A stretch of DNA of 64,000 nucleotides from Minisyncoccia bacterium (GCA_049304015.1 JBAQNS010000009.1:3228-67227); one strand, 5' to 3'; shown: positions 43,133-44,023, numbered from the stretch's first letter. The notes: a model not told the origin generated them from the letters alone. Translations and numbers: made by a program.

Positions 43133-44023
43133 TTGTCAGAGAGATTTAGTTTAGCTGACAATCTATTTAGTTCAATTTTGACCTCAAAAGGAGGGATATT
43201 GATTATCAAAGATCCTGGCTCTGGGAAGAGCTATGAAGTTGGTCAAAGAGTGGCTGAGACCGAAAGGTATCGGCTTTATCTCTGTAGACCAGAGGGTGAG
43301 TCTTCGGACCACCTGCTTCAAATCGCGGTGGAGGTGGAGCATAATGCTGCCCTCGATCGCGCGTCGTACGTTCTGGAAAGGCTCGAAGAAGAAGCTCGCA
43401 AGATCGAGGAAGAGTTCGCCAAGGTGAAAACCGAGCCGAATCACTTCCTGAATTACCAACTCTGTTTCCCCAAGGTCGTGGGTTCATTCATACCAGACGA
43501 TCAGGGTGGCAGACGAGTAAACATCCTTTGCTTCAGAGAGGTGGAGGATGTAGGCAAGGTTGTACCGCTACAGAACCTCGTAGAGACGGACAAGCTTCGT
43601 GCAGATTTGAGGTCGAGTGCTTGGATCATGGGGAAACTCCTCAAGATCCTCATCTTCCTCAATGATGCGAATGTGGTTGCTCATGATCTGTCGCTCGGCA
43701 ATGTTCTCATCGAACCCGAGCAACACTACGTCATCATTTTCAGTTGGGCTGACGCCGAATTGAAAGCTGGTGCAGTAGGTAGAGCAATCACGAGAAGTGA
43801 AATTCAAGCAGCTGCTCGCGTTGTCATCGAAGTGCTGGGAGGTACTCTCGAAGGAGGTATCCCCGGTGATGGTGGTCAAGAGCATGTTCAGTATCAGAAG
43901 TTTCTCTTCGACCTCGCACATGGCAGTGAAAGTAACGCGGCACTGGCTCACATGTCGTTCTACAAGTTGGTTGATAGTTTGTGGCCACGCGGTTTCTATC
44001 CATTCACCACCCACTCTCGGTAA
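43133..44023 (+). CDS. Protein-kinase-like/APH-family phosphotransferase (divergent) - first gene of high-GC island
   Basis: Gly-rich loop IKDPGSGKSYEV and catalytic loop VAHDLSLGNVLIE (compare HGDLHPGNIL of APH/CotS and HRDLKPENIL of kinases), followed by IIFSWADAE. High-GC codon usage. The start is ambiguous: TTG at 43133, or TTG at 43199 after an AAGGAGGG SD. Confidence 0.55.
   Translation: MSERFSLADNLFSSILTSKGGILIIKDPGSGKSYEVGQRVAETERYRLYLCRPEGESSDHLLQIAVEVEHNAALDRASYVLERLEEEARKIEEEFAKVKTEPNHFLNYQLCFPKVVGSFIPDDQGGRRVNILCFREVEDVGKVVPLQNLVETDKLRADLRSSAWIMGKLLKILIFLNDANVVAHDLSLGNVLIEPEQHYVIIFSWADAELKAGAVGRAITRSEIQAAARVVIEVLGGTLEGGIPGDGGQEHVQYQKFLFDLAHGSESNAALAHMSFYKLVDSLWPRGFYPFTTHSR

Follow-up and report, generated by a model that had tools for sequence, protein, structure and literature searches.

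A probable Hanks-type pseudokinase encoded in a conserved five-gene module of Patescibacteria with NrtR operator-like sites

The question raised by this locus is what is encoded by an open reading frame (ORF) at 43,133 bp–44,023 bp of a 64,000 bp stretch of Minisyncoccia bacterium DNA (GCA_049304015.1 JBAQNS010000009.1:3228-67227; hereafter the window), and how it relates to the genes that surround it. The original prediction, made from the sequence alone, described the product as a divergent APH- or kinase-like protein with a substituted metal-binding motif, either an atypical small-molecule kinase or a pseudokinase scaffold partnering a von Willebrand factor A (vWA) protein, and regarded its gene as the first of a foreign island. 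The analysis favours the second of these options. We put at roughly 60% the probability that this gene, designated g1, encodes a degenerate Hanks-type pseudokinase that is a non-catalytic subunit of a complex formed from the products of co-transcribed genes, and that the module to which it belongs (g1–g5) is under the control of the regulator NrtR.

The AlphaFold2 (AF2) model of g1 had a predicted local distance difference test score (pLDDT) of 90.3 and a predicted template modelling score (pTM) of 0.86, and showed the bilobal organisation of the Hanks-type (eukaryotic protein kinase, ePK) superfamily, with an N-lobe beta-sheet plus helix alphaC and a helical C-lobe. Foldseek analysis of this model revealed the STK40 pseudokinase to be the best match (E 2.9e-10). 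Because of this model confidence and this E value the resemblance is not due to chance, and on the model g1 has a genuine protein-kinase fold, so that the protein-kinase-like (PKL) fold originally proposed was upheld. The top structural matches were all Hanks-type protein kinases, the closest known structures being PknB-type kinases, STK40 and VRK3, and none was of the APH, CotS or FN3K type. At the sequence level the family profile found its best match in the PDB in CK2alpha (9.6e-5), and g1 matched a PHROG annotated as "kinase" (5.5e-5) and mycobacteriophage Ser/Thr kinases (5e-4) weakly. A Pfam scan of the window protein returned no match, and none to Pkinase (PF00069) at E<=1; the best family members scored 16–19 bits against the Pkinase gathering threshold of 31.7 bits. 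The only NCBIfam match was below threshold (LanL, E 0.18), PADLOC gave no match, and no recognisable domain was found in the N-terminal extensions of a few longer family members. Were g1 a small-molecule kinase related to APH, CotS or FN3K, the first option of the original prediction, this would account for an HD....N stretch superficially like Brenner's motif and for an activation segment that is short, as in small-molecule kinases. The combination of a conserved HxDxxxxN Brenner motif, a downstream metal-binding Asp and an APH-type C-lobe was not found in g1, however, and with Hanks-type kinases making up all the top structural matches this affinity is very improbable.

The residues at canonical kinase positions were counted in 121 close and 253 wider relatives of g1. 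The motifs had been correctly located in the original prediction: AHDLSLGNVLIE corresponds to residues 183–194 and FSWADA to residues 203–208, placements supported by alignment with both STK40 and CK2alpha. In the phmmer alignment AHDLSLGN of g1 lay opposite HRDLKLGN of STK40, with D185 on the HRD Asp, and in the profile alignment with CK2alpha Gln63 fell on the VAIK Lys (the lysine of CK2 VIKIL) and FDW on DWG. The glycine-rich loop GxGxxG was not present in g1; the equivalent residues 37–45 read VGQRVAETE and were variable across the family. The beta3 (VAIK) lysine position, Gln63 in the window protein, was occupied by Q in 161 and K in 75 of the 253 wider relatives, and the DFG-Asp position, Ser204 in the window protein, by D in 198, N in 39 and S in four, which makes Ser204 the rarest and most degenerate DFG state. 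The window protein belongs to a "Q-type" group; a "K-type" group, approximately 30% of the family, retained the Lys, the Asn and the DFG-Asp. The Asp and Asn of the catalytic loop had both been described as preserved. This holds for Asn190, which was retained in 223 relatives (88%), but not for Asp185 as a family feature, as its column was D in only 32 (13%) and otherwise L, N, Q, R, K or a gap. There is therefore no family-wide constraint on the catalytic base, and D185 cannot be used as evidence of activity. The segment from residue 204 to the next helix (217) was very short, of insufficient length for a normal activation/P+1 loop, and lacked an APE-like motif. None of the best-conserved residues of g1 (N71, D158, W164, G167, K171, H198 and Y277) belonged to the canonical catalytic motifs, a distribution compatible with a conserved core or interaction surface. 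The residue pattern thus fits the pseudokinase option, and g1 is probably a pseudokinase that does not catalyse phosphotransfer. The possibility that g1 is a decaying pseudogene was rejected, as its relatives, more than 250 in number, were intact and of constant length.

In some kinases, WNK being an example, the catalytic residues are displaced, and g1 could by analogy be an active atypical Ser/Thr or dual-specificity kinase that uses D185 as the base and phosphorylates the vWA protein or another component of the module. The positions of D185 and N190 in the STK40 and CK2 alignments and a fold nearest to active kinases such as PknB would agree with this, provided that the absence of the Lys and of the DFG Asp is compensated by other residues. 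We consider it improbable given the loss of D185 from most of the family, the Gln and Ser at those two positions, the missing glycine-rich loop, the very short activation segment and the lack of a Pkinase match. It is also conceivable that the fold serves a non-phosphotransfer reaction, such as the AMPylation carried out by SelO or the glutamylation carried out by SidJ, or senses a nucleotide or metabolite, a candidate ligand being a product of the PurA-like enzyme encoded by g3. In keeping with this, besides the retention of Asn190, an Asp or Asn occupied the DFG position in 94% of the family, an invariant His198 lay in the beta7–beta8 turn beside the nucleotide pocket, one subfamily kept Lys, Asn and Asp together, and the module itself is nucleotide-centred (a PurA-like enzyme and a nucleotidyltransferase). 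The window protein nevertheless lacks both the Lys and the DFG Asp, and no SelO, SidJ or FAM20-type fold outranked the canonical kinases among the structural matches, so this use of the fold appears unlikely.

The ORF proposed at 43,133 bp–44,023 bp was present on the forward strand and encoded 296 amino acids counted from a TTG. The ambiguity of its start codon, raised in the original prediction, was confirmed, with three gene callers placing it differently on the identical sequence (296, 281 and 274 amino acids); the maximal ORF begins at 43,133 bp, the NCBI call at 43,178 bp and the shortest form at TTG 43,199 bp. The homologues of g1 were 272–276 amino acids long and their first residue aligned with residue 23 ("MII...") of the 296 amino acid form, a strong Shine-Dalgarno sequence (AAAGGAGGG, 43,187 bp–43,195 bp) preceded TTG 43,199, and residues 1–20 of the long form were modelled by AF2 at pLDDT <50. 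For these reasons TTG 43,199, rather than 43,133, is the likely start, giving a g1 of 274 amino acids at 43,199 bp–44,023 bp.

Genes g1–g5 were found as a module in more than 45 loci of Patescibacteria (loci are cited below by L numbers). A search with the g1 profile showed that the order g1-g2-g3-(g4)-g5 was kept in 41 GTDB species-representative genomes, and the same order was present in contigs retrieved by protein identity and in three loci for which g2 was the seed; g1 was never found alone in the loci examined. The sizes of the encoded proteins were approximately 275 (g1), 372 (g2), 461 (g3), 400 (g4) and 590–650 (g5) amino acids. In some loci g4 was detached, and g5 was in all cases on the opposite strand, convergent with and adjacent to the cassette. 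The named carriers were Minisyncoccia, Saccharibacteria, Paceibacteria, Falkow-, Moran-, Davies-, Wildermuth-, Nomura- and Peribacteria, and a few metagenome-assembled genomes with the module carried other or generic labels. The most divergent cassette was that of L045 (8799 bp–13,139 bp), in which g1 and g2 had 25% and 23% identity, nrtR, its boxes, g1, g2, g3 and g5 were kept, approximately 1.9 kb of extra sequence lay between g2 and g3, and g4 was not detected. An Rfam scan of the leader and whole cassette revealed no riboswitch. The transposon sequencing (Tn-seq) tables of the sole genetically tractable Saccharibacterium, the only such data set for the phylum, contained no adenylosuccinate-synthetase gene, and this strain is therefore probably without the module.

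The gene following g1 after 17 nucleotides, g2 (44,041 bp–45,165 bp, forward strand), encoded a vWA-domain protein with a C-terminal helical region. It had the Rossmann-like fold of vWA proteins and a metal site of the DxSxS...T...D type, and its metal-ion-dependent adhesion site (MIDAS; D81-T-T83-G-S85, T146, D190) was intact and invariant in the family. This assignment required a structure model, as all Pfam matches were sub-threshold and the family profile had no match among PDB sequences.

The product of g3 (45,187 bp–46,566 bp, forward strand) was a divergent adenylosuccinate-synthetase (PurA/PurZ)-like ligase (Pfam PF00709, 1.7e-29), which scored best against a phage PurA/PurZ-like PHROG (phrog_1211, 5.5e-40) and reached 71 bits against the NCBIfam PurA equivalog, the cut-off of which is 402. 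The equivalents of the P-loop Asp/Lys and of the catalytic His were invariant in the g3 family. Family-wide replacements were found at the aspartate-binding site (TGR to QGK), at an IMP-contacting Gln (to His) and in the guanine-specificity motif (TKLD to TWFD); the comparison uses the E. coli PurA numbering, in which Thr301/Arg303 bind Asp and Lys331 is specific for guanine. As the phosphotransfer residues are kept and those of the substrate sites replaced, different substrates are implied, and g3 looks, from its residues, like an active ligase with substrates differing from those of adenylosuccinate synthetase.

The protein encoded by g4 (46,589 bp–47,737 bp, forward strand; 382 amino acids, P0392, from GTG 46,589 after the Shine-Dalgarno sequence AAGGAG) consisted of a RAD51-N/SAM-like double helix-hairpin-helix, or (HhH)2, domain, an Ala/Pro-rich linker and a highly conserved helical domain. 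Its profile matched the RAD51 N-domain (9.5e-4), and domain scans gave sub-threshold matches only (NCBIfam NirA family E 0.1, Pfam SAM_TNK E 0.042 and TetR_C_11 E 0.1). It was the best-conserved protein of the module, with 458 homologues, all hypothetical, and 63–79% identity among the top matches, which spanned many lineages; conservation was highest in the helical domain, which carries a PPGMMQPPDTG loop and a GIGG tail. Between the convergent g4 and g5 a scan detected a terminator-like GC-rich hairpin followed by a T-run (47,767 bp–47,791 bp, forward strand; 10-bp stem with seven GC pairs). The last gene, g5 (47,808 bp–49,583 bp, reverse strand), encoded 591 amino acids with a Pol-beta-type nucleotidyltransferase core (Pfam Polbeta 1.7e-5; profile against the HI0073 nucleotidyltransferase 4.4e-4) between large conserved N- and C-terminal regions. 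The nucleotidyltransferase signature G406-S407...D418-x-D420 was intact and GS/DxD was invariant in the family.

Divergent from g1 lies an nrtR-like gene (42,255 bp–42,947 bp, reverse strand) encoding a Nudix domain and an NrtR winged helix (Pfam NrtR_WHD 3.2e-22, AraR_C 3.5e-12, NUDIX 3e-6). Its ORF reaches a GTG at 42,998 bp, and the ATG at 42,947 bp is the likelier start. A homologue was directly upstream of the cassette in approximately 10 of 45 loci, with L045, the most distant, among them. Two tandem 21-bp palindromes resembling NrtR boxes were present in the intergenic region between nrtR and g1 (42,973 bp–43,026 bp), at 42,973 bp–42,993 bp (ATATTGTCAAATATACACTTA) and 43,006 bp–43,026 bp (TAATTGTATAGTTGACACTAA). 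The published NrtR operator is a 21-bp palindrome with a GT-N7-AC core, and ADP-ribose frees NrtR from DNA (PMC2330246). Palindromes of this length and core thus occupy the promoter region of g1. A scan of 664 kb, comprising the loci and the window, for TTAGTGT-N7-ACACTAA (<=2 mismatches, GT/AC core fixed) gave 27 matches, 14 of them within 400 bp upstream of g1, an enrichment of approximately 38-fold. Most of these boxes were at −139 to −214, and they occurred also where no nrtR was adjacent. Apart from the window, loci with the palindrome upstream of g1 or of the associated genes included L003, L005, L023, L027, L030–L034, L037, L045 and L050, and boxes also preceded the detached g4 (L027 and L030) and g5 (L015 and L034). 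In L050 an identical box type preceded both a pncA-pncB (isochorismatase-nicotinate phosphoribosyltransferase) pair and g1. Recurring neighbours of the cassette were nicotinate phosphoribosyltransferase, isochorismatase/PncA-like proteins, ADP-ribosylglycohydrolase, nicotinamide adenine dinucleotide (NAD) kinase and the ITPase-like NTPase_I-T. From its operators the module is predicted to belong to the NrtR regulon of many of its carriers.

Three further observations concern this region and its neighbourhood. Genes of NAD salvage and ADP-ribose metabolism surrounded the cassette in unrelated lineages, at 1 bp–5856 bp and 14,302 bp–15,119 bp of L050 and at 4000 bp–5061 bp and 14,692 bp–16,828 bp of L003. 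A consensus scan of the window placed a promoter-like site, TTGACT-17-TAGAGT, upstream of g1 (43,083 bp–43,111 bp, forward strand), as a consensus match alone (9 of 12 positions). Between the NrtR-like boxes and this site was a 15-nucleotide inverted repeat, GAATAGTGTGAGGTT / AACCAAGCACTATTC, with a 9-nucleotide gap (43,037 bp–43,075 bp); its half-sites resemble those of NrtR (TAGTGT / CACTA) and their spacing is non-standard.

A mechanism can be proposed in which g1 would act as a scaffold, allosteric regulator or ligand sensor in the complex of the module. Its likeliest direct partner would be the adjacent vWA protein g2, the MIDAS of which would hold an acidic residue of its binding partner by way of a metal ion. 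Catalysis would fall to g3, the divergent PurA-like ligase, and to g5, the Pol-beta nucleotidyltransferase, acting on a nucleotide or nucleotide-linked substrate. NrtR would repress g1–g5, and ADP-ribose, signalling NAD breakdown, would induce the module alongside the NAD-salvage genes.

Several points weigh against this assignment of g1 and of its regulation. The window protein itself has an Asp at the HRD position (D185), and the K-type members of the family might bind ATP-Mg; some so-called pseudokinases were later found to catalyse other reactions. The equivalent of the alphaC-Glu could not be confidently placed: the weak CK2 alignment puts Ala77 there, and an invariant Glu92 sits further along the same long helix. 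Gene adjacency is the sole basis for casting g1 as a scaffold of the vWA protein. Boxes with <=2 mismatches upstream of g1 occurred in just approximately 15 of 50 loci, and within the window alone they were not significant (five matches against 4.4 expected), so that their significance comes from the cross-locus comparison.

A more specific, and doubtful, reading is that g1–g5 form an undescribed, Patescibacteria-specific system, responsive to NAD or ADP-ribose, that makes or attaches a non-canonical purine nucleotide. NAD breakdown would derepress it through NrtR, the pseudokinase-vWA pair would sense or scaffold, and a neofunctionalised PurA-like ligase with altered amine and NTP sites would work with the Pol-beta nucleotidyltransferase. 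If this were true, the nucleotide product would serve salvage in auxotrophic epibionts, or a stress or anti-phage response.

The cassette had also been regarded as a foreign island. Analysis of base composition showed a GC content of 50–63% between 43.2 kb and 47.75 kb compared to 33–42% on both sides. The GC content at third codon positions (GC3) was 0.54 for g1, 0.62 for g2, 0.39 for g3 and 0.70 for g4, whereas nrtR (0.32), g5 (0.26) and the neighbouring genes fell within 0.23–0.32. The composition of g1–g4 is thus foreign-like, as proposed. The anomaly recurred, g1–g4 being above the flanking GC in most of the other loci too with g5 following the host, and the five-gene arrangement and operator were conserved across the phylum, which is why the cassette is not a one-off insertion. 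The island reading is thus only partly borne out. On the simplest reading the cassette is a lineage-typical module whose g1–g4 part is exchanged among Patescibacteria, with a xenologue possibly taking the place of the resident genes, and is no unique insertion. The mosaic GC3, with native-looking g5 and nrtR, suggests such in-place replacement of part of the module, and a recombination joint may lie around g3.

Alternatively, g1–g4 could be passenger genes on an island that is mobile or of phage origin, such as an anti-defence or NAD-related accessory module, and their association with the host chromosome would then be incidental. The elevated GC of the cassette and GC3 of g1, g2 and g4, the phage PHROG that scored best with g3, and two IMG/VR contigs with the cassette, one of them beside a ParB-methylase gene and a GH25/CW_7/LysM lysin, would be in agreement with this. 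These two were, however, the only matches in 2.9 million viral contigs compared to the 41 species-representative genomes, and a tblastn search with g2 found no match in 50,697 phage genomes, so that the cassette is not a known phage module. Furthermore, the edges of the island in the window showed neither an integrase nor tRNA or repeat boundaries, and g5 and the NrtR operator, although host-like in composition, were constantly linked to the cassette. A mobile origin of this kind is accordingly given little credence. One contig classed as viral, L047 (IMG/VR UViG_3300028454_000294; regions 1134 bp–4404 bp and 7192 bp–12,911 bp), carried the complete cassette, with a ParB-N/DNA-methylase gene and a GH25-CW_7-LysM lysin at a distance of a few kb, and occasional carriage on phage-like or mobile elements is possible. 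At L046 the neighbours were a phosphoribosyltransferase-domain protein and a small nucleotidyltransferase, and no phage hallmark genes were seen.

The g1 family and its module were compared with known systems. In contrast to bacterial Hanks-type kinases (PknB of M. tuberculosis, YabT and PpkA), g1 has neither glycine-rich loop, beta3 Lys nor DFG Asp, does not conserve the HRD Asp, has a very short activation segment, scores below the Pkinase threshold and carries no sensor or PASTA domains. STK40/SgK495 (Tribbles-related) and VRK3 are eukaryotic proteins with no detectable orthology to g1 (14–19% identity), whereas the g1 family is bacterial, restricted to genomes of the Patescibacteria type and encoded in an operon with a vWA protein. 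CK2alpha and the g1 family have in common that the DFG Phe is, unusually, a Trp (DWG in CK2, FDW in the family), as in 234 of the 253 relatives, but CK2alpha is constitutively active with all catalytic residues, and its similarity to g1 is limited to the N-lobe strands and the stretch from catalytic loop to DFG. The TerY-P system (the vWA protein TerY, a PP2C phosphatase and a Ser/Thr kinase) likewise has a vWA protein encoded beside a kinase-fold protein. It was excluded here, as the cassette contained no phosphatase at any locus and PADLOC returned no match for g1–g4; the kinase-fold protein of the module is moreover degenerate, and TerY-P has no counterpart of the PurA-like, HhH/helical and nucleotidyltransferase genes. 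With the NrtR regulons of NAD salvage (Rodionov et al. 2008, PMC2330246) the module shares the 21-bp GT-N7-AC palindrome upstream of g1, the adjacent nrtR and the boxed pncA/pncB of related loci; none of g1–g5 is a known enzyme of NAD biosynthesis or salvage, and the abstract and motif passages of that work mention no pseudokinase, vWA or PurA-like member. A search of the literature on this gene combination, PurA-like defence systems and Patescibacteria pseudokinases found nothing relevant.

Elsewhere in the window, two putative surface proteins (38,028 bp–40,085 bp and 40,675 bp–41,202 bp) had a near-identical tail of approximately 45 amino acids, VGRVLGAETEN(A/T)AAVALQIASIKAQLADLIRQLI(T/A)LLQAQI, and the CAP-domain protein encoded by the gene after them contained a related SKVLGAE stretch. 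The tail may represent a common module for anchoring or sorting.

Pseudokinases of bacteria are few in number, and little about them is understood. The g1 family comprises several hundred sequence clusters, is confined to Patescibacteria-type genomes and has no Pfam model reaching threshold, no NCBIfam match and no functional name in the source records; it could be a pseudokinase family so far without annotation, in an operon context that is new, and the module as a whole could be new. What had been an anonymous hypothetical cluster becomes a testable unit for which the genes are delimited, an operator and the inactive and active subunits are predicted, and residues to mutate are named. Enzymes can be recognised only in two of its products, the re-tooled homologue of adenylosuccinate synthetase and the nucleotidyltransferase. 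The module is linked to NAD turnover by its predicted control through NrtR and by pncA/pncB genes that recur nearby; NAD depletion is a common outcome of phage-defence systems, and NAD turnover is a central vulnerability of these reduced, host-dependent bacteria.
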